From assembly GCA_000320545.1 (NCBI GenBank), contig ADNK01002376.1:1-36860 (forward strand): a stretch of 36,860 nucleotides of DNA. The letters run 5' to 3'. The notes under the pieces were generated by a model. The model was not told the DNA's origin. It saw only the letters and a list, made by a program, of their open reading frames with translations, and did not search any database. This DNA is from Bigelowiella natans CCMP2755. Taxonomy: Eukaryota > Protista > Cercozoa. How positions within the stretch are numbered: position 1 is the stretch's first letter; every line of letters begins with the position of its first letter. The translations under genes and the position numbers were made by a program. Below, piece after piece: positions 6,036 through 26,534 of the stretch.

Positions 6036-8115
6036 TGATCAATAACATGCTCAAGCATCACTCGTAGCGAAATGAAATACTTACAATGCAACAGCAGCAG
6101 AGCATAAGCAGGACACCAGCACAAATTAAAACGAGGGCCAGCACCTGAGTGAACACAAAATCAAAGATTGTTAGACATATTGTCAGATTTAAAGGTTGCT
6201 CTCTTCCAGGCATTAAAAAAATGTGGGAAATGAAGCCATTCAAAACTAGTAAGCTATCAGCATATATGAAGAACACACAAAATTTCTCGTCACCGGTAGT
6301 CCCCCTCCATCCCCGGTTGTATCCTCCCCCGAGAGCGTTGAATTGGTGCTGTTTGCTATCGTTGGGCTTAGTGTGGGAGCCTAGGCATGTGCGTCCACGT
6401 AAATAATGTGGGAATTAGTATGGTGAGTGTGACTTCACGATATTTTCAGAGAAAAAGATGCTCGATTTCAAAAGCTGCGTATTCTAAAAAAAAGAAGTTA
6501 CATACCGCGGTTGTTGGTGCGTCTGAGAAGTAAGCAGCGGACGGCGCTTGAGTATTAGTACTTGGCATAAATGTCGGGGTTTGTGAGAGTATCGGCGTTC
6601 TGGAAGGACCCATCGTGGGGTTCACTGTTGGAATGGGAGATGGAGGAGATGATGGACTTATAGAAGGAGCAATTGTGGGGCAGAAAGACGGAGAGGCTGT
6701 GGGTAACATCGAGGGGCTAGTTGTGGGATTAAACGATGGAGAGGAGGATGGATTCATGGAGGGAGCGGCTGTTGGTCTATAAGACGGCGACGCTGTGGGT
6801 GCCATCGAGGGGTTAATAGTCGGACTAAGCGAAGGTGAGGCTGATGAATAGGGAGCGATTGTAGGACCGAAAGACGGTGACGCTGTGGGTGTCATCGAGG
6901 GGCTAGTTGTTGGATTAAGTGATGGAGAGGAGGATGGACTAGTTGAGGGAGCGACTGTAGGACCGAAAGACGGTGACGCTGTGGGTGTCATCGAGGGGCT
7001 AGTTGTTGGATTAAGTGATGGAGAGGAGGATGGACTAGTTGAGGGAGCGACTGTAGGACCAAAAGACGGTGACGCTGTGGGTATCATCGAGGGGCTAGTT
7101 GTTGGATTAAACGATGGAGAGGAGGATGGACTAGTAGATGGTGCCAATGTTGGTGATATTGTGGGGCTGATTGTAGGGGCACAAGGATCTGTCCCAAAAT
7201 TTGGAATCTGCGAAGATGTGAGGGCGCTAGAAGTTGAGAAGTCGTTATAAGTTAGTACATTGCCGACGCACCAGCCACTGAGATCCTAGATATGAACACA
7301 ACGAACATGTAATCGACACATCTTCTATACGTCTATCGCTTATAACGAAGAGGAAGGTAATGAGAGGGTGAGAAAGATAGGGTAGAGTAGAATGTGTAGG
7401 ATAAAAGTTACGCAGCGAGAGGGTTATGTGTTTGCCTAGTGCATCCCCCCTCTCAATGATGGCATTTGATTTGCATTACCTGACTAAAGAGAGTGGCTCC
7501 GTTGAACATGTGAGCCATATGCTGGCTCGCCTCAACGTTCCAACCAGATATATCTTGATTGAATGACGAGGCCTGGTAAAACATGCTTTCCATCGTAGTG
7601 ACTGAACTCACGTCCCAGCTACCGATGGGCCCATCAAACGAAGAAGCCTGGTAGAATGTTTTGTCCATTAAAGTGACTTTGCTAGTGTTCCAGCTGGCTA
7701 TGTTGCTGCCATTGAACGCGGTCGCTCCGTAGAATGTGCCCCTCATTGACGTTACTTTGGACGTGTCCCAACTGCTCAGATCTCTGTTGAACGAGCTGGC
7801 TCCCTTAAACGTTTGGTACATGCTAGTGACCTTCGATACATCCCACCCCGAGATGTCTTCGTTAAAGGTGCTCTTGCCGTGGAACACGTCAGCTAATGAA
7901 GTCACATCGCCAGTATACCAATCGACGATGTTCCCATACTGTGCTTCAGCGCCAGCCCTATATCCGACCCAGTAGCCTACTGCTGAAACTATATTGCTAC
8001 TGGTGATGGGGTCGCAATCCACATTGCCCGTGTTGGTAGTCGTACATGCGGAACAAGAAAGGAGGCAGAGGATTGTTGTGAGTGCCTGTAGCACAGAACG
8101 CCTCTGATGGAACAT
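5666..8115 (-). CDS. DUF285/BspA-like repeat surface protein with S/P/T mucin-like stalk, single TM helix and short cytosolic tail (type I membrane protein)
   Basis: Exon 8115-7480 has a hydrophobic signal-like N-terminus and repeats of type [38 protein letters not shown]. Exon from 7285 reads [10 protein letters not shown]...IPNFG, then the P/S/T stalk. Later exons read [13 protein letters not shown]..., [20 protein letters not shown] (TM), [11 protein letters not shown] (basic stop-transfer) and [10 protein letters not shown]...AAIV* (TGA at 5666-5668). Confidence 0.85.
6640..7150 (-). repeat. Coding tandem repeat with a 96-bp / 32-aa unit, about 5 copies
   Basis: Unit [32 protein letters not shown]; the central copies are nearly identical at DNA level. 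Confidence 0.9.
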
Positions 8116-8869
8116 GTTAATACCTCCTTTCGGTTATGAGCTCCGTGGTCTCCGGACTTGTGTTATTAGTAAGCCACAATCGTTCGATTGTCGCAGGAGG
8201 TCAGATCCTTTGGATTTTAGACTAGACTACGCTTGCACGTGCTCAACAACGATGCGCGTGCCTCCCTTGGTTTCTGATTCTTTTTTTTTGGCAGATTTCA
8301 CGTAAAGATGTCCTTAACACTTAACACTGCTGGGGCACTGCGTTTCTTGTTCGTTTCCTGCGTTTCTCGTTGCTTGGAGGCATGGCGACAAGCATTTTCT
8401 CTTTGTCGCAGCTGTCATTTGAACTGCCATCTTTCGGAAAAACTACACTTTTTGCGGGAAGTGTTCGAATTGTTCGGTGATTGTGTTGGATGCAATTTCA
8501 TCCTGTGCGATGCGGTGCTGACAAGTCCTCGCAACGACTGTTGTTGAGGCTCTGCTACATGCAAATGCCTGTCTCCCATGTGGTTCTGGCGCATGCAGAT
8601 TTGATCAATGCTTCATTCATTGTTCATTGTTCATTGTTCTTTGTGGATTTCACCTAGTCGCAGAAATTCGAATTTCATCCACTCATCTCCGAATGCCATC
8701 GACCGATCAGCCTGCACTGCACAGCACGTGCTTGTTGTGACGCGGTCCTCAGCTACCCACAGCTAGCTAGTTGAACTAGCTTCACACAACACATGTGCGC
8801 ATGAATGTTTTTTGTTGCAAATGACGACGGCAATCGTTGGTTCGGGATCAACAATTTGCTAGCTAGCTA

Positions 8870-9195
8870 TGTTGCGCGTAAGGTGTTCACAGGCCGAGGC
8901 GCTACGTGCACAAGTAGGCAGGGGGGGGGGAAGGCACGTTTGCTTCCTTTTGAAGAGTTGTGTTTATTTTTATTAAAGATTATATTTTTATTAAATCGTG
9001 CACTGCGTAATCATTCGCGAAGCTTTCGCGAATGCCGCCGCACGTGGGGCAGCACACTTCCGGTGTGCTGCCATGAGTCCCGCCGGAACCCACGTGCCCA
9101 TGCTGTATTAATATCTACGTTATCTATATTCTATATCCGCGACAACCCCTTTGTTGTCGCACGTGACTTGTGCCCGCGTAGTGGTACGCGCTACA
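8870..9195 (-). repeat. 3' LTR (326 bp)
   Basis: Identical by eye to 14260-14585. Termini tgttgcgcgta / tacgcgctaca form a 10/11 inverted repeat. On the element strand there is a TATA-like tract followed later by three AATAAA motifs. Confidence 0.97.
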
Positions 9196-9203
9196 CCTCC
9201 CCC
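9196..9203 (-). promoter_or_regulatory. Polypurine tract (GGGGGAGG) abutting the 3' LTR
   Basis: The minus strand reads ...gacttGGGGGAGG|TGTAG; a further purine run (ggaaggaaggag) lies just upstream. Confidence 0.85.
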
Positions 9204-9246
9204 AAGTCACGTTGCTCCTTCCTTCCTTCCTTATTCCCTTAGACCT

Positions 9247-12200
9247 TCATCGCTTTCGGAACTTCACCAACCACCAGGTAATAGATTCCTCTCTAACCTT
9301 ATCTCCTTTGTCGCTTACCCAGAACTCACCTTCGTCCTTAGGTTCGTGTCCATACCAGCCCTCTGCATCAAGGTCCCCCAGGACCTTATACCAGTGCTCA
9401 AAGGGTAAGTCGGGAACAGCTAGGTAGAGTAGCTGATATTTTCCGTCCTTTATTTTCATAGCTACCCTCTCCATATTTCGTAATCCAGGGTAGCCTAGAT
9501 AGACAATCTTCATGCGCCAATCGTCGTTCACCCTGACCTTATTGTTTCCATATTCCACATCGAACTTAGGTCGGGGTCCTAAACAAGGCATTGCTCGCTC
9601 CCACACAGTAGGGTTTACTTTAACATCCTCTAGGAGCTTCTCACCGATATCATAATTCTTTAGGTGACTGATGTGGCGCAAGGTGACCCTGTTCCCATCA
9701 TAGATGTAGTACTGCTTCCTCCCCTTCCTCTCGGTAACCTTTGCAACGCCACCCCAGAAGGGGTCTTGTTTATTTCTCGATCTCAGATTTACCTTGGCCC
9801 TAACATACTGTCCTTCCTTTAGAACTCGGCCATCGTACGGGACCTTCTCGTCTTCGCTCTCGGTATCGTCGTCGTTGTCGTCGCCTTCTTCCCTCTCCTT
9901 ATCCTTGATACCTCCCCCAGACGTGAAGGTGTCGTTTACTAACCCTTGTATCTTGTCTGGTGTGGTGCTATTTATCCTGCTTAGGTTGGCCAAGGTGCGG
10001 TGGAGTCGCTCTACCTTGGAGTTGGACTGGGCATAGTATACAGGTGAGGCATCAATATTAGGGTGTGGTAGCTGTAGAAGAGAGGTCTCATTATCCACAT
10101 GTAACTTCTTTGGTATCTTGTTTATGCTAACTTCATCAGGGATAGCCTGGAGCTCAGACTCCCAGGTACGGTAGCAGTTAGTAAGCCTCTGCTTATATAA
10201 GCCTTTGTTCTTCTTAGCAACGTTGACCTTGATAATCTTTTTAACCCAGCACTTTCCAGTGGCCACATCAACGAAGGTAAGGTAGTGATAGCCATCGTAC
10301 TTATAAACATCAATTTGCACGATATCTAAGAAGTTCCTTGCTTTGATTTTCTTAGATGCACGGCTCTTGCTGGACTCCTTGGTGGCGACGCCTGCCGCCT
10401 TCAAGCTGGAGCACCTGCAGCCACGCAGGTATGTCCTTATCTCTTTTAGCTTGTAGGGCCAGTAGTAATGGTAGAGTAGAGCAGTGATATGGTTTTCTCC
10501 TACGTGTGCAGGTCCATGGGCGGTAAAGAGAAGGGCTCCCCTGGTCCGCCGTGGCACGTAGGTACGCCTAACATTATTAGTGTATACATATATCCTATCA
10601 CTAAGTACCTCATGCTTGTGTTTGTATTTATCCAGGTGTTCTTGAAGGTGCTGGAGCTCCTCTGGCTCAGGCAGGAAGTCGCCGTCCTCGAAGGTAATCG
10701 CGTTAACCATAGGGGTGACCTGGGTAGGGACTTTCTTTTCGAACAGCCTGCTGAAATAGTCAGCAAGCTGCTTGTCTCCTGGTGCGTAGACCACTGTCCT
10801 CTTGTCCCTAAACTCTTCCGTGTCCGCCCTCATAGCTGCATACTCATCGTTAGGCGCTTCGAGCTTGCGGTCGATGCCTAGGAGGGGCTTGTGGTCAGTC
10901 ATTAAGGTGAAGCTGGGCACCGACAGCAGGTAGTATCTTAGTTTCCTCTGCGCCTCAGTCATGGCTTTATACTCTCCTTTTGTAGGGCTGTACTTGGCCT
11001 CAGCTGCTGTGCAGGCCCTGCCCCACACCCGTATGATCTGCTGGTCTTGGGTAAGTACAGCAGCCATACCTAGCTTAGACCAGTCTGTCCATAGGGTAGC
11101 TGGTCTAGTAGTGTCTAGCTTAGCATTCAATAGGGTGTTGCTGCATAACTTTATTAGGTTATCGAAGTGGGCATCAAGGCCAGCCTTGGCCCACACCTTA
11201 GCGAAGCTGAGGCCTACAGAGTTCTCCTTCCGGTAAGCAGTAGTAAAAGCAGCTGCAGTCCTAGCGTAGGTAGGGGAGAACCTACGTAGTATCCAAGCTG
11301 CAGTCTGCAAGAATGACTTTAACTCCTTTGCATTCTTAGGTTTAGGGGCTTGCTGTAGTGCTGCTACTTTCTCGGGGTTTGGGGTGATGCGGCCTTGCTC
11401 CAGGTAATATCCACACCACTTGATTCTTGTAGCTAGGAATGTACACTTCTGCAGTCTAATAGTAAAACCGAAGTGTGCAAACCTAATAAATATATTTTCC
11501 AGGAGGAAGATCTGAGCGACGACTGTGTTGGTACATATTATGTCATCATCCACATACACAAACACAAACACCCACAACACAGACGCCATCCCATCATGTG
11601 TGTATGCCCTGTAGTTCTGACTACTGAACGCATCCCCTGATATGCTTAGGCCGTAAGGGAATACGACGAAGTGCCACTTCCTGTGCCTGCTGGAGAACGC
11701 GGTAATGGGGCGGGAGGTTTTGTGGATGGGTGTCTGCATGTATGATTCATTTTTATCTAGGGAAGAGTAGTATTTGTATCCTATGACGTGTTCAATAACG
11801 TCATCTATCCTTGGTGTAGGTGTCTGGATCCTCTTTATTACTCGGTTGTGGCGGATGAAGTTGTGCGCCAGGCGGAAGAAAGGGTAAGTAGGTTTCTTAG
11901 CTAGCACATGTCTCACGTTCCATGGTGAGTTGCTTGGCTCTATCTTCCCTTCCTTTGCCCATTCATTGATCTGCCACTCTATCTTTTCCCAGTCCGCTTC
12001 CGGTCGCCTATGTTCTGGGTCATTGATGATGCACTCTTCGTATCCCTTCTTTAGCTCGATCTTTACTGGGGTAAGCTTGCTGGAGGGCTTCGTCGTCGGC
12101 TTGGTGATGTCAGAGTACTTCTCGTTTAATATTTTATTAATGTACTTTTTGCCTTTGTCGATATCCCAATCATCAGCTGGGGGGGTCTTGTCCAGTAGCT

Positions 12201-14220
12201 CCGTTATCTGTCGGATGGTCTTGCCGGGGTTCTTCTTCCGTAGCTCGGTAGGTGTAGGTAGCTTGTTGTCCGCTAGGTCCATAAACTCTAACGCATTAAC
12301 GCTTGACTCAGAGGTCCACTCGTCAAGCCGTATCATGTTCTGGCTGATGGTCCTGCCTGACTTCTTTGGCAACTTAGCAAAGTATATCTTGTGATTGTAG
12401 AATGATATGATCCCCCCTAATTTTTCTAGGGCATCCTGTCCGAGGAGTAGTTCCATGGATAAAGTCATGGCTACTCGGGTCTTGATTTGGGTCTCCGCGT
12501 CGCTGCCAGGTATCTGTAGCTTTAGCATTAGCTCACCGACGGTCTTCATGGAAGAGCTTCCGTCTGCTTGAGCATATTTACGTTCTTTCTTAGTCACTTG
12601 ATCCAATAGTCCTAACCTTCTTACTGTGCTTAGGCTTATGAAGGACTTCGGCATGCTGCCACTATCCCAAAGGGCAGGTAGTTTCTTGTAGTCTCCGTAG
12701 CTGTCTTTAACTTTAACCTTGGTCATAGCAACTTTGATAGTCCTGTTAGCGTCTTCGTCATTAATGTTGCATACTCCTAAGTTCTTTATGTCGTCTAGGG
12801 TCATGGGCTTGTCTTGGTCCTGCGTTGCTGGTACTGCTGTCTTCGTCGGCGCCTGCTTAAGGTGATCTAATATTCCGTTTATCTGCTGCTGTATAGCATT
12901 GATACTGTTCTGCTTTTTGTTCTTATATTTATTGTTCTTCCCGTTGTTGCTGCCTTGCCATTTGCTGTTGTTATATCCTTGTCCTCTGCCTTTCTTTCTC
13001 TTTAACTTCTCGTAGTGTTCGTTGAGCTGCCTGATCGTCATCCTGGGTCGTCCTTCTTTCCTGTCTCTGCAGTCTTTAGCGGTGTGTTTCCCTTTACGTG
13101 AGCAGTATCCGCAACGTCGGTTACCTTCCCTGTCCTTGTACCAGTCTCGCTGCGGCTTAATAGCGTTAATGTTTCCTATGCCAGGTACCTTAGGGCTGGT
13201 AAACTTGCGGTCCTGCTCCTGCTCGCGTAGGGATATAGCCTGCACTGCTGCCTCCATCGTGGTGTAGCCTTTCTCCGTAACGTAAGTGGATTCCTTTATC
13301 TTTAACTTGAACTCTTCAAACCTTGCCTGATCATCACCTGTGTTGTAATTAAAATCATGTAGTTCGTCGATCATATCCTGGAAGCGCGTGGCAAAGTCTC
13401 TAACAGGTTCTCTCTCATGCTGCATCATTGCTCTGTATTTTCTAATAGCCTGGGGTAGGGAGTTAGCATCCTGTTCATTTACAAAAGCCTTCATTATCGC
13501 CTCAACGTCTCGTAGCCCACTAACTGTAGTGTGTATTTTCTCTAGCTGCCTGATCCGGGTCCTGCCTGTCTCGTAAAGGTCCATGGCTTGCTTTATTATA
13601 GCTAGCCATTTGAGCTTGTCGTTTTCGGTGGGGTTAGGGGTAAAGTCGCAGAGTATACTCCTAGCGTTCTTCCACCACCTCCTTGCCTCACCTCTTTTCC
13701 CGTTGTATTTCGTTATCATAACCGGTGCTGTTTTAACAGACATGAACTGGGTGTTCCGCTGTACCGGCTGCTGCTGCTTGACGGTGCTCTGGGTCGTCCC
13801 CCGCGAGGCGCCCAGACCCCCGTCGTTCCTAAACAAAGCTGCCCACTCTGGAGGTAAGTCTGCTTCGTAATCCATGATGTCCTGCATGATAGCTGCCCAA
13901 ACATCATGTGTCTGATACTTGTATTCTATCGATACTTTCAGTTTGGCGTAGTTGCTCGCCCTGGGTCGCAAGGCTCGTAATGCCATTACGACCTTCTTGC
14001 TTTCGGCGGCCACGTCCTCGTCGTCCGCCTCGTAGAAGTTCTCCAGTGCCTCTGCTGCTGCATCTGCTTTCTTAATCCCGGGTGCTGGTCCCGGCGGTGC
14101 CTGTGGAGGTGTTCCTCCTCCTTCCTTAGCGTCCGTATCGCCCTTCCTTTCCTGTTTCTGCTCGTGCCCTTGCACGGCCTGCGAGCCAAAGTCCTGCTGT
14201 TCTTCTAGCTGCTGTGACAT
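9247..14220 (-). CDS. gag-pol: Gag-Pol polyprotein, 1657 aa: Gag with zinc knuckle, aspartic protease, RT, RNase H, integrase, GPY/F-like module, C-terminal MTase-like domain
   Basis: CGYCSRKGKHTAKDC (13069-13113); ALWDSGS (D at 12664-12666); SSLD, FPYGL and YVDD (11545-11556); RNase H LWTDWS...YSPTKGE...TDHKPL...ADYFSR; integrase HGPAH...CRC, IQ-region D (QIDVY), HVDNE, KVERLHRTL; LKEGQYV...PFWGG..KV. Confidence 0.96.
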   Translation of the reverse strand: MSQQLEEQQDFGSQAVQGHEQKQERKGDTDAKEGGGTPPQAPPGPAPGIKKADAAAEALENFYEADDEDVAAESKKVVMALRALRPRASNYAKLKVSIEYKYQTHDVWAAIMQDIMDYEADLPPEWAALFRNDGGLGASRGTTQSTVKQQQPVQRNTQFMSVKTAPVMITKYNGKRGEARRWWKNARSILCDFTPNPTENDKLKWLAIIKQAMDLYETGRTRIRQLEKIHTTVSGLRDVEAIMKAFVNEQDANSLPQAIRKYRAMMQHEREPVRDFATRFQDMIDELHDFNYNTGDDQARFEEFKLKIKESTYVTEKGYTTMEAAVQAISLREQEQDRKFTSPKVPGIGNINAIKPQRDWYKDREGNRRCGYCSRKGKHTAKDCRDRKEGRPRMTIRQLNEHYEKLKRKKGRGQGYNNSKWQGSNNGKNNKYKNKKQNSINAIQQQINGILDHLKQAPTKTAVPATQDQDKPMTLDDIKNLGVCNINDEDANRTIKVAMTKVKVKDSYGDYKKLPALWDSGSMPKSFISLSTVRRLGLLDQVTKKERKYAQADGSSSMKTVGELMLKLQIPGSDAETQIKTRVAMTLSMELLLGQDALEKLGGIISFYNHKIYFAKLPKKSGRTISQNMIRLDEWTSESSVNALEFMDLADNKLPTPTELRKKNPGKTIRQITELLDKTPPADDWDIDKGKKYINKILNEKYSDITKPTTKPSSKLTPVKIELKKGYEECIINDPEHRRPEADWEKIEWQINEWAKEGKIEPSNSPWNVRHVLAKKPTYPFFRLAHNFIRHNRVIKRIQTPTPRIDDVIEHVIGYKYYSSLDKNESYMQTPIHKTSRPITAFSSRHRKWHFVVFPYGLSISGDAFSSQNYRAYTHDGMASVLWVFVFVYVDDDIICTNTVVAQIFLLENIFIRFAHFGFTIRLQKCTFLATRIKWCGYYLEQGRITPNPEKVAALQQAPKPKNAKELKSFLQTAAWILRRFSPTYARTAAAFTTAYRKENSVGLSFAKVWAKAGLDAHFDNLIKLCSNTLLNAKLDTTRPATLWTDWSKLGMAAVLTQDQQIIRVWGRACTAAEAKYSPTKGEYKAMTEAQRKLRYYLLSVPSFTLMTDHKPLLGIDRKLEAPNDEYAAMRADTEEFRDKRTVVYAPGDKQLADYFSRLFEKKVPTQVTPMVNAITFEDGDFLPEPEELQHLQEHLDKYKHKHEVLSDRIYVYTNNVRRTYVPRRTRGALLFTAHGPAHVGENHITALLYHYYWPYKLKEIRTYLRGCRCSSLKAAGVATKESSKSRASKKIKARNFLDIVQIDVYKYDGYHYLTFVDVATGKCWVKKIIKVNVAKKNKGLYKQRLTNCYRTWESELQAIPDEVSINKIPKKLHVDNETSLLQLPHPNIDASPVYYAQSNSKVERLHRTLANLSRINSTTPDKIQGLVNDTFTSGGGIKDKEREEGDDNDDDTESEDEKVPYDGRVLKEGQYVRAKVNLRSRNKQDPFWGGVAKVTERKGRKQYYIYDGNRVTLRHISHLKNYDIGEKLLEDVKVNPTVWERAMPCLGPRPKFDVEYGNNKVRVNDDWRMKIVYLGYPGLRNMERVAMKIKDGKYQLLYLAVPDLPFEHWYKVLGDLDAEGWYGHEPKDEGEFWVSDKGDKVREESITWWLVKFRKR

Positions 14221-14236
14221 TGTTAGTCAAATCGTT

Positions 14237-14254
14237 TCCCGTGTGTGGAAGCCA
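14237..14254 (-). promoter_or_regulatory. Primer-binding site, tRNA-like (possibly tRNA-Glu)
   Basis: The element strand reads TGGCTTCCACACACGGGA, 5 nt after the 5' LTR. Its complement TCCCGTGTGTGGAAGCCA ends in CCA and resembles tRNA-Glu 3' ends. The tRNA identity is an inference. Confidence 0.75.
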
Positions 14255-14259
14255 AAGGT

Positions 14260-14585
14260 TGTTGCGCGTAAGGTGTTCACAGGCCGAGGCGCTACGTGCA
14301 CAAGTAGGCAGGGGGGGGGGAAGGCACGTTTGCTTCCTTTTGAAGAGTTGTGTTTATTTTTATTAAAGATTATATTTTTATTAAATCGTGCACTGCGTAA
14401 TCATTCGCGAAGCTTTCGCGAATGCCGCCGCACGTGGGGCAGCACACTTCCGGTGTGCTGCCATGAGTCCCGCCGGAACCCACGTGCCCATGCTGTATTA
14501 ATATCTACGTTATCTATATTCTATATCCGCGACAACCCCTTTGTTGTCGCACGTGACTTGTGCCCGCGTAGTGGTACGCGCTACA
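14260..14585 (-). repeat. 5' LTR (326 bp)
   Basis: Direct repeat of 8870-9195; followed on the element strand by the PBS and the gag ATG. Confidence 0.97.
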
Positions 14586-14977
14586 GCTAGCGCATGACTT
14601 GAGCAGTCAGGCTGCTGTGTGGGCTAGATGGGTGTCGGGTTATCTTTGTGCCATGCTAGCATGATGGACACACATCTAGACTTCTAGACATGGCCGCCGC
14701 AACAGACGACATAGCATTGGTTGTGGGCGTGTGACCACAGCTAGCTAGACAGGTTCAAAGGTGTCTGGTGCTAGATTTCACGCGCCAGTTAGCATTGTGT
14801 TTGGCGGATGCACACTGCTGCCAAACCACATAATCCATATTCACAGCAGGTTCGCGCAGGATTCTTTCGCAGCGAGACTAGACTTGACACATAGCATGCA
14901 ACATGTGACAGCAAAAACATCGTGTCAGACAGATTCATACCACTGCTAGACTGCGACTCAGAAAAATTTGAATTTGT

Positions 14978-17814
14978 TCATACAGTAGTTGGAGCCTTCC
15001 CTTCTCTGAGTAATAAAATATATTGCTTAGTATAAGATTGAGGTTGTCGGGAATATCTAAGAAATTCGTACCTGTTGACCAGAGATTTTTCTTCAATTTT
15101 AGTGCCTTCATCGATAGTTTTCCCTTCCAGAGACTTGATGCTACCCACAGAAGCTCGATTTTGCATTTCTTTCGCGTTCTGTACAAGAAAAAAATGGTTT
15201 TCACCTCTGAATGGGATCAACATCACCATCGTCGCAAAATCGTGCCCACCTTACGCGTCTTCGCTTTCTTGTCGATGTCCTCCTTGTCATGAAGGGTTGC
15301 CATTCTGCTGATGATGGTGTAGTAAGCAACCACGAAGATCGAAAGAACTCCAAGGATGATGAGCCCATGCCACCAGCGGTTTTTAGGCCAGTTATCTGTT
15401 GGTTCATCACCACCGTTCGTCGTCATCAGAGGAGCAATCACCAGTGAGACTACGCTCATGAGCTTTATTAGAATGTTGAGCGATGGCCCGGAAGTGTCCT
15501 TGAATGGATCACCTACGGTATCACCTACGACAACGGCCTTGTACTCATCAGTTTTCTTTGGATGCTTGGTCTCGGGGTGCAACATGCCTTTGCCGACATA
15601 CTTCTTGGCATTGTCCCAAGCCCCACCTGCGTTGGACATCATGACGGCAAGAAGAAACCCTGAAGAGATAGATCCCGCGAGTAGCCCAAGCAAGCACCTC
15701 GGTCCGATCATGAGGCCGACTACAATTGGCATAAATATGGCCAGAAGCCCTGGAATGACCATTTCCTTGACAGATTCTGTGGTGCAGATGTCGACGCACT
15801 TCTGGGAGTCGAGGGGGGTACTGTGTTCCCATTTCTCGTTGAGTTGGGATCGGCACTCGTACATGATCGCTTCCGCAGCGCTCCCGACGGAAAGCATGGT
15901 GAGGGCTGCGAACACAAAAGGAAGTGCCGCTCCGAGGATGATTCCAGGTAGAACGACTTCATCGAGCAAATTGACCTCCTGTAAGCCGACGGCATCTGCA
16001 AACGCGTTCATCAGAGCCAGGGCGGTGAGTACCGCACTTCCGATAGCAAATCCCTTTCCCGTAGCGGCAGTTGTGTTGCCTAATGCGTCGAGTGAGTCGG
16101 TTGTGTCACGAGTCTTGTCGCTCACTTCTTGAGACATTTCAGCAATGCCTCCTGCATTATCAGCCACTGGGCCGAAGGCATCTGTTGCCAGGGTCACCCC
16201 GAGGGTCGAGAGCATTCCGACGGCGCACACGGCAATCCCATATACTCCCATCAAGGCGTGAGCGGCAAGAATAGCAACCACGACGCAAAGCACAGGAGGC
16301 ACACAAGAAAGCATACCGACACCCAACCCCTGGATAATGACGGTTGCAGGACCTGTATACGACTTTTCGGCGATGGAGACAGTTGGTGGCTCGGTGTAGC
16401 TCGTTGCGTACTCCGTAGCAAATCCTTTAAGTGTAAGATAAACACGCATACACGATGAACACATGTGCACACACACACACACACACACAGGCTGCGAAAA
16501 TGTGAGATGGTGAAGTGAGTGTAATGTGTTGCGTTTGCTTGGCGCGCAATATTTGCTCACCAATAGAGTTTCCGCACAAGATTCCAATAAGCACAGTAAG
16601 GAAGAGCTTCCAGGCCTCGGAATTATCAGTACCGAAGGTAAGTCCAATAGCCACCCACGTCAGGCCGAGGACAACAATAGAAGATGCTATAATTGCAAAT
16701 CGGATCGACCAGAGCAGAGAGTTCAGCACAGCGGTAGCCTCTTTCAGTTGACTTTCCTTGTCGCCAACATTCTTTTTCACTGTCCGAGCGGTGCGGACTA
16801 GCATCGTGCCGATGATGGATGCAATCGACCCAAATCCAGCTAGCCAGAAAGGGAAGGCGATTCCAGCATTACCAAACTTCTCCACCCCGAGGGTAGCTGC
16901 AGCGATGATGGAACCAGCGTAAGATTCAAAGAGGTCGGCACCCATGCCTGCAACATCACCAACGTTATCCCCGACATTATCTGCAATTGTCGCGGGATTC
17001 TCTGGCGAGTCTTCCGGTAAATCTTCCTCCACCTTTCCCACTAAATCTGCACCGACGTCCGCAGCTTTCGTGTAAATCCCCCCCCCAACACGAGCGAAGA
17101 GCGCGACACTAGAGCCTCCAAATGCAAAGGCTGAGATCTGTTCCCAAATTTCCCTCCGATGGTCTGCATCCTTGTCCTCATCCTCAAACGAGATGTAAAG
17201 AATTGCGATGCCAATGAGAGCGCTGCTCACTACGGACAACGCCATAACCGATCCTGATTTGAAAGCTACCCGAAGACCTGCATTCAGGTCGCCAGGCTGG
17301 TCTGGGGATGGAGGCTCACACGCAATCGTGGTGAGGACATTCGAGTATGTAGCAACTGTCATTCCGATATATCCGGAAGTCGCAGAGAGGATTGCTCCGA
17401 ACCAAAACGACACCATCGATCTCCAGCCAAGCCCCGGCAGACCGAGGATTACCAAACCAACGACGAAGATAAATCCAAGCAGGAAAGAGTACTCTCTGTG
17501 TAGAAAAGCACGAGCACCAGCAGAAATCGCATCTGCAATCTTATATGTTTCTGGATACTTCTCACGGTCACGCGGCATAAATGAGAGCTACGCACAGAGC
17601 ACATCAAATGATCAGCCAGGGATTAAGATAGAAATTAAGCTGTGGGGTGACCTGAAGGGCGTAAATCGTTGCAAAGATAAGGGCAACACCTCCACCGATC
17701 CAAGCTGTAAAAAGAAATAATTAGCTCTGAGAATTCTGAAAAAAGGCGTGTTTAAAGGCCCGCTTTCGTAAATTACTGACCTCCCGAAGAATTGCTATAA
17801 CGGCCAAGGTCCAT
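14978..17814 (-). CDS. hppA: Membrane-bound ion-translocating pyrophosphatase (mPPase), K+-dependent, with Na+-PPase-type signature
   Basis: Motifs RVGGGIYTKAADVGADLVGKVE, DNVGDNVGD, GPVADNAGGIAEM, DALGNTTAATGKGFAIGS, GGAWDNAKKY and GDTVGDPFKDTSGPSLN. There is an intron at ~16560-16425, short 5' exons (MDLGRYSNSSG|AWIGGGVALIF...) and 3' exons ending ...EGKAPTTV* at 14978. Confidence 0.95.
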
Positions 17815-23421: not shown

Positions 23422-25823
23422 TCATTCGTCTTTGTTGTGCAGAGAGTGCGCTGCAGCAAAGTACTTGCGGGCCTGCTCTGCATGAAACTTGCCACTTTCT
23501 GTCGCCTCGACCACTTCAAGCTTCAAGAACTCCATCGTGTCCTCACTATCTTCATCCTCGTCATAATCGTCTTCATCTAGTTCATCTTCGCGATCTTTTT
23601 CATCAGCAAGCAGTTGCTTTTTCCAGGCCTTGTTCAAATCAATCACCTTACCTTTGTGACCACTACCCACATAATCATAAAAATCTTCCATGTGTTTCTT
23701 GATGTGCTTCTCTTTGATTTCAGGAAGCAAGTTTTTGGACTCCTCGTAATTGGCCATCTCGAACAAACGTGCATATTGGAGAGCAATGTCCTCATATTCT
23801 TCAACTACTTCTGCATAAGACAACTCCCGACACAAATCAGAAAGGTATAGGCCGCATTCAGTAAATTCCCCTGGCTCCATGGTCTCAAGAGCAGCTGGAC
23901 AGCCTTTCATGGTACACCGGACGATATATTTGTACGTATACTTGAGTATGCACTTGTGGTACAATTGCGCATTCTTTTTCGACAGCGTTTTCGATATATT
24001 TTCTGCATCAAGAAAAATACAACTCATATACCTCATATACCAACCATCGGAGTCGTTCCACGCGCACCACGCCCTTTCTAATTGTTGCTCCCATTCAGAG
24101 ATGTGCCCCACGAAATACTCTAGATTCTTTTCCCCAAAGATTCTTTTGGTACCCAGCGAATATAGGAAAGATCTATTATCAAATTTTAACGTCTTCACAA
24201 ATTTGGTTCTATTTGAAAAGCCGCCGAAGCTTAAGTAATTGAACAGTAAGAATTGGTGGATATCACTGTATTTTTGGCATCTATCCGCGATGCAACCAGC
24301 CAGGAAGATCAACTTGTTATGTATGACATCCGCCTACGCATAGGCACACCAAATATGTTAGCGAAAGCATATCATTTGAAAAATGGCACATTCCGGAACC
24401 CGCAGCCAATTTAACTACAAATGAGATTAACAGTTTCGGAAAAGATGAAAGTGACGATTGAGAAGTTCCGTAAGAAATCTACTAAAAATTAAAAAATAAA
24501 TGCAATGTGCTTTTCGTTGCATTTGCATTGAAGTACCTCTATCTCATCTTTTATCGAATTATCGCTTTGAGCTAACCAATGAGTCTCGGCCAACACTGAA
24601 TTGAAGCAACGAATAGCCATGTTAAGATTCTCTTCGCTGTGTCTCTTCTGCAACAACATCTGGCATCGCCCCAGCAGGCTACCATTCTTCATGGCTTCTT
24701 CCCAATTCGCTTTTTTCTCATTCCAGTCCTCGTTCTCGTTCTCGTCCTCGTCCTCGTCCTTGTCCTCGTTCTCGTCCTCGTCCTCGTCTTTCTCCATAAT
24801 ATACTTTCGGCCTTCAACGTCCTCGCATGCGACTAGGTACACGCGGTTCGCAACGAGTACGCACGACAACCAATATCTCATTGCAGGTGATATATCCTTC
24901 ATTAGTTGTATCACAAAACCCTTCACACGACAAAACTTTGCATAGGGGCGGGCCCAGCGCGCAACCGATTTTATGCCTTCGTCTTCTTCCTGGTTTAAGT
25001 CAGGTATCGAGGTGCTCGAAGAATTGTGCTGCAAAAACTCGGCCTTTTCGCATTGTATTTCGACTTCCTTTGCGTCAACTGCTCCTGATCCACTAACCTT
25101 TTCCTTGAATGTCTGTGGTGTGCCAATCGCATCCGTGTACTTGCGCAAGGCTGCCACCGCCTCTATAATCAGTTTCATCTTAGTTTCTGTTTCCTCCTTG
25201 TCTAAAAATCCGTCTGCAACAAGATCTTCGACTTTCTTAGCCTCTGATTCAGTGTCAGAGCTTATATCCATGTTTTTCCATTGAGCGACAGTCGCCTCCA
25301 ATTTCTTTGTGGCCGGTACGACTTCACTTTCATTGGTGGCAACGTTTGGCTGGCGGCAATGTTTTTGTTCCTTAATGTTCTTCTTAGTCTGTTCCTTTTC
25401 ACTAGAGGCAGGGTTTACCTTCTTTCCCTTTGCAAGTAGCTTTTGCTGCTGCTGCTGCAACTTCTCTTCCAACTCCCTCACCTTCTTCTCTAGCTGTTTT
25501 TGTAATTTCTCCTCTAGTTTTTTCACCTTCTTCTCTAATTCCTCCTTTTGAGTAGACTTTAAGACAGAAGTCTTGATTTCTGGAGGTCGCTCCTCTTGCT
25601 GTTGCTGTTGCTGTTGCTGTAACTTTTCCTCCAACTCCCTTACCTTGTTTTCAAGCTGTTTCTCCAACTCCCTCACCCTCTTTTCTAGGTGTTGCTCCTT
25701 AGCGTTGGGAATATTGCTTTCTGCTAATCTTTCCTGCTGCCGATGTTGCAATTTCTCCTCCAATATCTTTACCTTCCGCTCCAGCTCATCGTTGTTCCTT
25801 GGTGCACTGAAGCCTCCCCCCAT
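23422..25823 (-). CDS. Hypothetical ~732-aa protein with N-myristoylation motif, coiled-coil repeats and acidic tracts (2 exons)
   Basis: Exon 25823-24537 (429 codons) and exon 24333-23422 (304 codons including stop) join in phase 0 across a GT..AG intron. The N-terminus MGGGFS fits MGxxxS. LE(K/R/N)KV(R/K)ELEEKLQ is repeated about 5 times. Confidence 0.8.
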
Positions 25824-26534
25824 TAGCAGAGTTTGTCGATCGTCAGCGTCGGTTTCTAATATTTACGGATAATGCATCATAATACAACTTCCGTAAAATT
25901 CACGAAATTAGGCGTAAATTTGAAAAAGACATCCATATGGACATGTATTTAAATAAAATTCGTCTTCCAGATAGAAAACTATGCCACGAACGGTATCTAA
26001 ATCTAAAAAGACAGTAGAAGTTGGCAAAGATGAGACACAAAAGACAATATGAAACTAGGAACGGAGGAGTGGCTAGAATGCCATTCTTGGTTCTTTTTTG
26101 TTTCACTTTATGCATAAGCGCATAAGCCAGCATATGTTCGTAGCGAATGTCCTGGATGTTGCAACATTGTCACGGCGTCATGCCCAAAATTAGACCTCGC
26201 TAGATTTCTGATTTAGCTCGAGGCTTGTGCTAGATCTACGACAATCTAACCCTAATGAATACCACCACCACGATAAAAGGACGGATGATGCCAGGAAAAT
26301 GAATGCAAGATACAAAATCAGACCAGATCATTACGATAAGATATATCACGAAATGCAGGACAAAACACATTAAAGACACAGTAGTAGTACACGCTAGATT
26401 GTCGCACAAGGAAAGTTGAGGATCGGTTTCTTCCGTAACGGATCTGTAGATTAAAATCGTCCTTCCGAAATCAGCAGCCTGTCCCCTAAAGCCATCTCGC
26501 CGCACACACACAAATCACACGCCCATCCAACGCA

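Follow-up and report, generated by a model that had tools for sequence, protein, structure and literature searches.

The subject of this report is the end of a retrotransposon integrase in the chlorarachniophyte alga Bigelowiella natans CCMP2755 (Cercozoa). The DNA that was analysed, referred to as the window, is a stretch of 36,860 nucleotides (GenBank assembly GCA_000320545.1, contig ADNK01002376.1, positions 1 to 36,860 of the forward strand). On its minus strand, at 8870-14585, lies a complete long terminal repeat (LTR) element, and the last 132 residues of its integrase form a tail with the predicted fold of a Dam-like N6-adenine methyltransferase. The catalytic motif of such enzymes is replaced in the tail, the replacement recurs across the family, and the tail is likely a conserved pseudo-enzyme, judging from its sequence. 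The parts of the element, ending with those of the tail, are as follows:

14260..14585, minus strand: 5' LTR, 326 bp, TG...CA
8870..9195, minus strand: 3' LTR, 326 bp, 100% identical to the 5' LTR
8866..8869, plus strand: 4-bp target-site duplication, GCTA, inside a short GCTA run; its partner is at 14586-14589
14237..14254, minus strand: candidate primer-binding site, starting with TGG, 5 nt past the 5' LTR
9196..9203, minus strand: polypurine tract, adjoining the 3' LTR
9247..14220, minus strand: single gag-pol open reading frame (ORF) of 1657 aa, in the order gag, protease, reverse transcriptase (RT), RNase H, integrase, tail
10000..10521, minus strand: integrase zinc finger and DDE core with D/D/E intact (Pfam Integrase_H2C2, E 0.002)
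9652..9840, minus strand: SH3-type (GPY/F-like) integrase C-terminal domain, resembling foamy-virus integrase 4bac
9250..9645, minus strand: Dam-like N6-adenine methyltransferase-fold domain (AlphaFold2 model), likely catalytically dead, at the integrase C-terminus
9550..9564, minus strand: FDVEY, strand 1 of the tail, whose Asp is likely that of motif I in the inferred register
9484..9495, minus strand: GYPG, which lines up with catalytic motif IV (NPPY/F); the consensus in the family is G(Y/F)PG
9391..9417, minus strand: strand 5 loop with an invariant Pro and Trp

The gag-pol frame is free of stops from 9247 to 14226, stop to stop, with an ATG at 14220. By its sequence features the element is Ty3/Gypsy-type: it has direct TG...CA LTRs, a target duplication, a candidate primer-binding site, a polypurine tract, the protease-RT-RNase H-integrase order and a DDE integrase. 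The placement of the RT comes from the nearest solved structure, that of Ty3, which matches RT-RNase H at E ~1e-24 compared to ~1e-11 for retroviral RTs. A tRNA gene search of the window found no tRNA gene. Since the LTRs are identical and flanked by a 4-bp duplication, the element is a recent insertion, and the initial annotation was right to call it just transposed. All eight matches of a first homologue search were B. natans (Bigna1) gene models at 96-100% identity. A further search returned B. natans gene models at 99-100% identity as 16 of its 17 matches, so the family is multi-copy and young. Identical LTRs together with near-identical B. natans copies mean that the element has been mobile with this tail in place.

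In the initial annotation, the ORF was said to run on after the integrase GPY/F-like module into a degenerate Dam-like domain at 9247-9624. The tail and its stop-free end are present as quoted, but the domain starts about seven residues earlier, near 9645. The module before it is an SH3-type integrase C-terminal domain (best structural match 4bac, Z 8.3, root-mean-square deviation [rmsd] 2.3, 64 residues aligned), so the tail occupies the slot of the chromovirus chromodomain. The terminal domain is itself neither a chromodomain nor an SH3 fold, which had been named as the outcome that would speak against a methyltransferase; it models and matches as an alpha/beta methyltransferase fold. An AlphaFold2 model, built with 29 of the tail homologue sequences, is a five-stranded alpha/beta domain (mean predicted local distance difference test [pLDDT] 96.6, predicted template-modelling score [pTM] 0.89). 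Foldseek comparison with viral models gave 14 matches at E<=1e-3 (3.9e-6 to 9.7e-4, probability 1.00, TM 0.60-0.66). Seven of these are named; six of the seven are phage methyltransferases, five of them named as N6-adenine enzymes. In a second structural ranking, by VIA, PCIF1/CAPAM came first (Z 7.0, rmsd 3.4, 113 residues aligned), followed by KsgA/Erm (Z 5.4-6.4) and T4 Dam (Z 5.1), all of them middling scores. At the level of the modelled fold, the likeness to methyltransferases is beyond chance, and the fold suggested in the initial annotation stands. Relative to the full fold, the tail is predicted to lack the helix and strands that would lie between its strands 1 and 4. A model of the SH3 domain and the tail together (pLDDT 96.6, pTM 0.89) leaves no linker between them, and the two are predicted to pack as one rigid unit, with a basic SH3 module (+9) next to a tail that ranges from neutral to acidic.

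Queried by itself, the tail hit no known family in Pfam, PHROGs or the sequences of the PDB. Its PDB-sequence matches (collagenase, ribosomal eL21) were judged to be chance or SH3-level likeness. The Pfam Dam family (PF05869) does not match the tail in the window and matches one of 33 relatives, at E 0.032. When that relative was used in tblastn, seven of 14 phage records were annotated as N6-adenine methyltransferase under the match (E 0.2-0.7), a count made per record that comprises six so named and near-identical unnamed ones. An hhalign comparison with eight phage Dam-like proteins gave P 0.003-0.017, a score reached in one of 60 column shuffles, and a global hhalign alignment of the tail with phage Dams was not meaningful. 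The profile check proposed in the initial annotation thus came out in part: no Pfam or PHROGs match for this tail, and a weak hhalign signal. The hhalign register places GYPG on the NPPY of phage Dams, as had been proposed, with the motifs colinear at 10-15% identity. The motif order also agrees with that of the Dam-like domain of DIRS retroelements; the sequence comparison was made with phage Dams only.

A search of 1.84 billion representative proteins with the tail gave 46 matches at E<=1e-3: eight near-identical, one at 67% identity and 37 at 28-42%. The last 37, the window copy and two further relatives, P0061 and P0073, make up an alignment of 40 rows. None of the 40 has [NDSH]PP[YFW], which answers in the negative the question whether relatives keep NPPF. 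Motif IV is represented by G in 28/35 rows, then Y or F in 26/35, P in 33/35 and G in 31/36; the fourth of these columns is that of the base-stacking aromatic, and three rows have S-F-P-(L/F) instead. Because all 39 divergent relatives retain the domain, none with NPP(F/Y) and most with G(Y/F)PG, the change reads in sequence as a family-wide, conserved replacement and not as decay. The word "degenerate" is better exchanged for "replaced and conserved." Other residues are held even more strictly: Pro78 (39/39) and Trp85 (39/39) of the strand 5 loop, Trp97 (37/38), Trp109 (34/37) and Trp124 (37/37). These invariant columns, kept at 28-42% identity, bear out the suggestion that the domain is retained under selection.

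Conservation is unevenly spread over the fold. From the strand 1 Asp to the Trp before strand 4 there are 14 residues, compared to 28 in a phage Dam, which supports the deletion proposed after FDVEY on the side that binds S-adenosylmethionine (SAM); the shortened segment has no regular structure in the model. It is also among the least conserved parts of the tail, with none of 23 columns at >=80% (mean 0.36), as measured on 32 rows after eight that look TpA-hypermutated were left out. Columns at that level number two of eight in the motif IV strand (mean 0.68), two of 15 in the strand 5 loop (0.57) and five of 37 in strands 6-7 (0.47), which makes the target-base half the conserved half. Over ten long relatives the tail is 28-37% identical, as compared to 25-37% for protease, 21-27% for gag, 39-50% for the integrase core and 42-45% for RT. 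It is thus conserved about as well as protease, above gag and below the integrase core. The tail is the end of the protein in 10 of 11 long rows, the integrase D, D and E columns are retained in those relatives that cover them, and the same three relatives cluster in both the tail tree and the integrase tree, whose other groupings are weakly supported.

Of ten relatives checked for their source, nine come from metagenome or assembly contigs and one represents another B. natans family. One relative of the element, which is eukaryotic, stands among the hypothetical proteins of a bacterial metagenome bin (P0037), likely through mis-binning. A 48% match, P0014, was dropped as a chimeric gene model with a short near-identical piece. 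The viral, genome and metagenome contigs searched held no DNA of divergent relatives, and the sole metagenome match, contig L003, is the same element.

In view of these patterns, the tail probably acts without SAM-dependent methylation. We give about an even chance to the proposal that this Dam-like fold, its catalysis likely lost, persists as a binding module by which the integration complex is tethered or steered. In this scheme, a Dam-like fold would have been captured, its SAM side trimmed, and the catalytic Asn and stacking aromatic changed to Gly. The old target-base side would have been rebuilt and conserved for a binding role. Such a module could help to tether the integration complex to host chromatin from the slot in which chromoviruses carry a chromodomain. 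Its position and the predicted rigid link to the integrase DNA-binding domain argue that the tail belongs to the integration complex. Since the domain is neutral to acidic, a basic protein such as a chromatin protein would be favoured as the partner over naked or methylated DNA. A deep, still-mobile lineage without the catalytic motif but with the fold suggests that the domain can be useful without methylation chemistry, and with this element, intact and in a culturable host, a possible new integration-targeting module could be put to the test.

Several observations weigh against this proposal. The targeting role is argued from position and analogy, and the approximately five LTR flanks observed are too few for any target preference. 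Foldseek against the PDB gave no match at E<=1e-3, even though the top ranks were mostly methyltransferases, and the best VIA score, Z 7.0, falls in a range that the tool calls common. Support for Dam homology at the sequence level is weak. The relatives were collected with the tail as query, and family members without it would not be among them. The motif I Asp is retained in 24 of 32 rows, and a Cys, which is Phe in the window copy, in 32 of 39, so that some ligand binding or other chemistry is conceivable. Finally, whether eukaryotic Dam domains are active or dead is not established even for those that bear NPP, as far as the main text of a recent preprint goes (bioRxiv 10.64898/2026.05.21.726589).

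The main rival, possible rather than probable, is that the dead fold is a structural part of the integrase, stabilising the SH3 domain or the multimer without binding any host factor. The lack of an inter-domain linker and the pTM of the two-domain model fit such a role, as does the pairing of a basic SH3 module with a neutral to acidic tail, and the many invariant Trp, Pro and Gly residues may be plain core. Ty3/Gypsy integrases, however, function without a Dam-like domain. The G(Y/F)PG loop and the acidic loop motif after strand 5 are held at 30% identity, which is probably more than packing needs.

It is improbable that the tail has remained an enzyme whose chemistry or substrate has changed, for instance to the methylation of RNA, a cap, an RNA:DNA hybrid or protein, although its best PDB matches, PCIF1/CAPAM and KsgA/Erm, are RNA adenine methyltransferases. 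The motif I Asp and a nearby Asn persist in about 70-75% of rows, and the three S-F-P-(L/F) rows come nearer to a canonical motif IV. In most rows, however, Gly has taken the place of both the polar first residue and the aromatic fourth one in motif IV. The SAM-side segment is the least conserved and falls some 14 residues short of its phage Dam counterpart, and the model shows neither helix nor strand from strand 1 to strand 4.

The initial annotation suggested a reader of DNA or of N6-methyladenine (6mA); insertion steered by a tail that recognises 6mA, or a short motif such as CTAG, is in our view quite improbable. The conserved half is indeed the one that would face the target base, this copy was inserted in a GCTA run, and AMT1 orthologues have been reported in Rhizaria (PMC7145601). 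Yet 23 of 34 domains carry a net negative charge (the median is -5), motif IV has lost its stacking aromatic, and the other LTR flanks seen in run X10 are not GCTA. A literature search found no 6mA map of B. natans.

Some relatives of the tail carry the marks of editing. P0011, P0024, P0028, P0048 and P0049 show TpA-to-TpG/CpA hypermutation. In P0011, a B. natans copy, 18 of 114 residues differ and 16 of these are explained by single TpA transitions: 16 of 34 possible non-synonymous TpA changes have occurred, compared to one of 197 others (p 2e-14). Tyr is absent from P0024 (1243 aa) and P0028 (670 aa). TpA hypermutation in B. natans has been reported by Mettrop et al. (bioRxiv 10.64898/2026.01.13.699255), and the edited copies match what is described there, the reach into this LTR family being seen at the protein level. 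The window copy is unedited, with a TpA observed/expected ratio of 1.13 vs 0.78-0.79 in its flanks. One could consider from this that the tail is a decoy or inhibitor of a host adenine-directed defence, namely the TpA editing of these elements, given that P0011, P0024 and P0028 carry the transitions while the window copy is TpA-rich. This is very improbable, being pure conjecture: domain-bearing copies are edited anyway, and a fresh insertion explains the intact TpA content. Codon choice in the element is also unusual; over 9250-14217 (minus strand), CTA accounts for 45 of 124 Leu codons vs 6 of 71 in the neighbouring H+-pyrophosphatase gene. A neutral relic of an old fusion would fit the loss of the catalytic motif but is scarcely credible for a domain that is full-length, indel-poor and marked by invariant columns across 28-42% identity.

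The initial annotation saw in the tail an integration-targeting module unlike those of described Ty3/Gypsy elements, but a Dam domain in such elements is not new. LTR elements with such domains (DAM-LTRs) were reported by Fernandez-Moreno et al. in May 2026 (bioRxiv 10.64898/2026.05.21.726589, main text) in five lineages: chlorophyte, chloro-ochrophyte, ichthyosporean, Pyropia and Euglena. There, NPP is present in almost all DAM-LTR domains, NPP-bearing eukaryotic DAMs were inactive in E. coli, and the proposed role is to deposit 6mA. It is the only paper we found on Dam domains in LTR elements, and its main text reads them as 6mA writers. The Bigelowiella element shares with these a Ty3/Gypsy type, a Dam-like domain in pol, a five-stranded sheet with an N-terminal helix, and a unicellular host. 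It differs in having G(Y/F)PG instead of NPP and a Dam-like domain C-terminal to the integrase, with no chromodomain, and 6mA deposition is unlikely for it. The words "Bigelowiella," "Rhizaria," "chlorarachnio" and "inactive" are absent from that main text, and the supplements may list Bigelowiella. The screen used there required a Dam hidden Markov model (HMM) match at E<1e-5. The window tail has no PF05869 match and the best relative reaches 0.032, so far below the cut-off that the screen would likely miss this family. HMM screens in general likely undercount such elements. A literature search that covered subscription journals thinly turned up no paper about this element or about an integrase that ends in a catalytically dead Dam domain. 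The class is thus already described; new are its occurrence in a rhizarian lineage, the intact and recently mobile state of the element, and a dead motif shared by the whole family.

Dam-like domains are also known from DIRS elements (De Mendoza et al. 2018, PMC5890265), and the tree in the main text of the DAM-LTR preprint places these in the same fold family. DIRS elements use a tyrosine recombinase, unlike this element with its DDE integrase, LTRs and target duplication. The phage N6-adenine methyltransferases (PF05869) are the top Foldseek matches and have colinear motifs, but they keep NPP(Y/F)-type motifs and a longer SAM-side segment. Chromoviruses likewise carry an extra domain past the GPY/F-SH3 module that is proposed to guide integration; here, in contrast, the domain has a methyltransferase fold and a predicted rigid attachment, and targeting would be by analogy.

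A second finding concerns the strand opposite gag-pol, from which a spliced RNA appears to be made. Its main features, with the three introns that fall on the tail, are the following:

9249..14346, plus strand: antisense RNA without a long ORF, in which 25 or more spliceosomal introns are removed to a variable extent (RNA contigs; ends uncertain)
9278..9341, plus strand: antisense GT-AG intron inside the Dam-like domain (RNA run X15)
9405..9569, plus strand: antisense GT-AG intron spanning GYPG (RNA runs X15 and X16)
9608..9663, plus strand: antisense GT-AG intron at the N-terminal edge of the Dam-like domain (X15, X16 and contig L003)

In three of four marine metatranscriptomes there are joints, 26 in all, whose plus-strand ends are GT...AG; among the 15 joints listed, seven occur in two or three studies. 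The same joints are absent from four DNA runs, three of which span the internal region in one contig. The JGI contig L003, RNA-derived and from the same element, has 13 GT-AG gaps, six of them common to the metatranscriptome joints. A transcriptome protein, P0010, is exactly explained by the RNA minus intron 9734-9822 only; it had no usable match in the protein atlas. The union of introns comes to 25 (24 GT-AG and one GC-AG, 56-165 nt), from which joint 10281-10373 was left out as it does not fit a single GT-AG intron. A branch-point-like YTRAY is present in 19 of the 25, against a background of 0.31 (p 4e-6). The antisense strand was read from intron ends, as the contigs give no strand, level or ends. 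The RNA contigs of two studies end at 14346, a point 87 nt inside the LTR and next to an AT-rich box that may be a sense start or an antisense end. The RNA does not come from an antisense gene for a protein, since removal of all 25 introns leaves 25-43 stops in the three frames and a longest open stretch of 139 aa.

The codons of gag-pol may themselves be shaped by this splicing. In synonymous-codon shuffles, the antisense strand had 41 GGTRR donors vs an expected 25.5 +/- 3.7 (0/600), and under a stricter shuffle 41 vs 31.9 (5/600). No excess was seen on the sense strand (16 vs 16.9) or in a host gene control (9 vs 8.8). GGTAA, AGGTA, GTAAG and CTAAC all rank in the top 15 of 1024 five-mers on the antisense strand, while an excess of acceptors there was lost under the stricter shuffle (101/600). 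Because GGTRR was picked after the donors had been seen and one element was studied, selection for antisense splicing at synonymous sites is suggested by the sequence and not proven. Cryptic splicing of a T-rich strand is a possible alternative source of the introns. Drosophila HeT-A and TART, as described in PMC2615633, also make retrotransposon antisense RNAs that are non-coding, with several introns, variable splicing and no long ORF. HeT-A is a non-LTR element, however, with mapped antisense introns against the boundary and 3' untranslated region, whereas here some 25 introns extend over 5 kb of coding sequence with donors enriched at synonymous sites. Splice signals in codon choice across gag-pol are a testable lead on how a retrotransposon copes with an intron-rich host that edits foreign DNA. 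One could join the two findings: a captured adenine methyltransferase turned integration-targeting or chromatin-binding module, together with synonymous sites shaped for a spliced antisense RNA. With its antisense strand transcribed and spliced in the manner of an intron-rich host gene, the element would possess a disguise or regulator that outlasts reverse transcription and might protect new copies against silencing and TpA editing. As a whole this is doubtful.

The element has been seen outside this assembly as well. Fourteen DNA runs under 11 coded organism labels contain 96-99% of its words. In three DNA runs it is a single contig of 5420 nt at 99.9% identity, and the flanking host genes are without coverage; a closed LTR-plus-internal loop would have just this length. 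The data fit trace host DNA as well as circles or a spread from host to host, and where spread to other hosts was considered, trace host DNA explained them equally well.

In the window, the element lies between host genes. A DUF285 (BspA-like) ORF followed by a Pro/Thr/Ser-rich repeat ORF (6446-8133, minus strand), likely exons of one surface-protein gene, lies about 740 bp from the element on one side. On the other side, about 640 bp from the 5' LTR, is the membrane H+-pyrophosphatase gene (15223-17587, minus strand). Farther away, at 23422-25862 on the minus strand, are two long ORFs (303 and 457 aa) that are acidic and coiled-coil-like, with no credible Pfam family. Short pieces of multi-copy repeat stand on either side of the element, at about 8514-8645 and at 14736-14753, and match many small X10 contigs.

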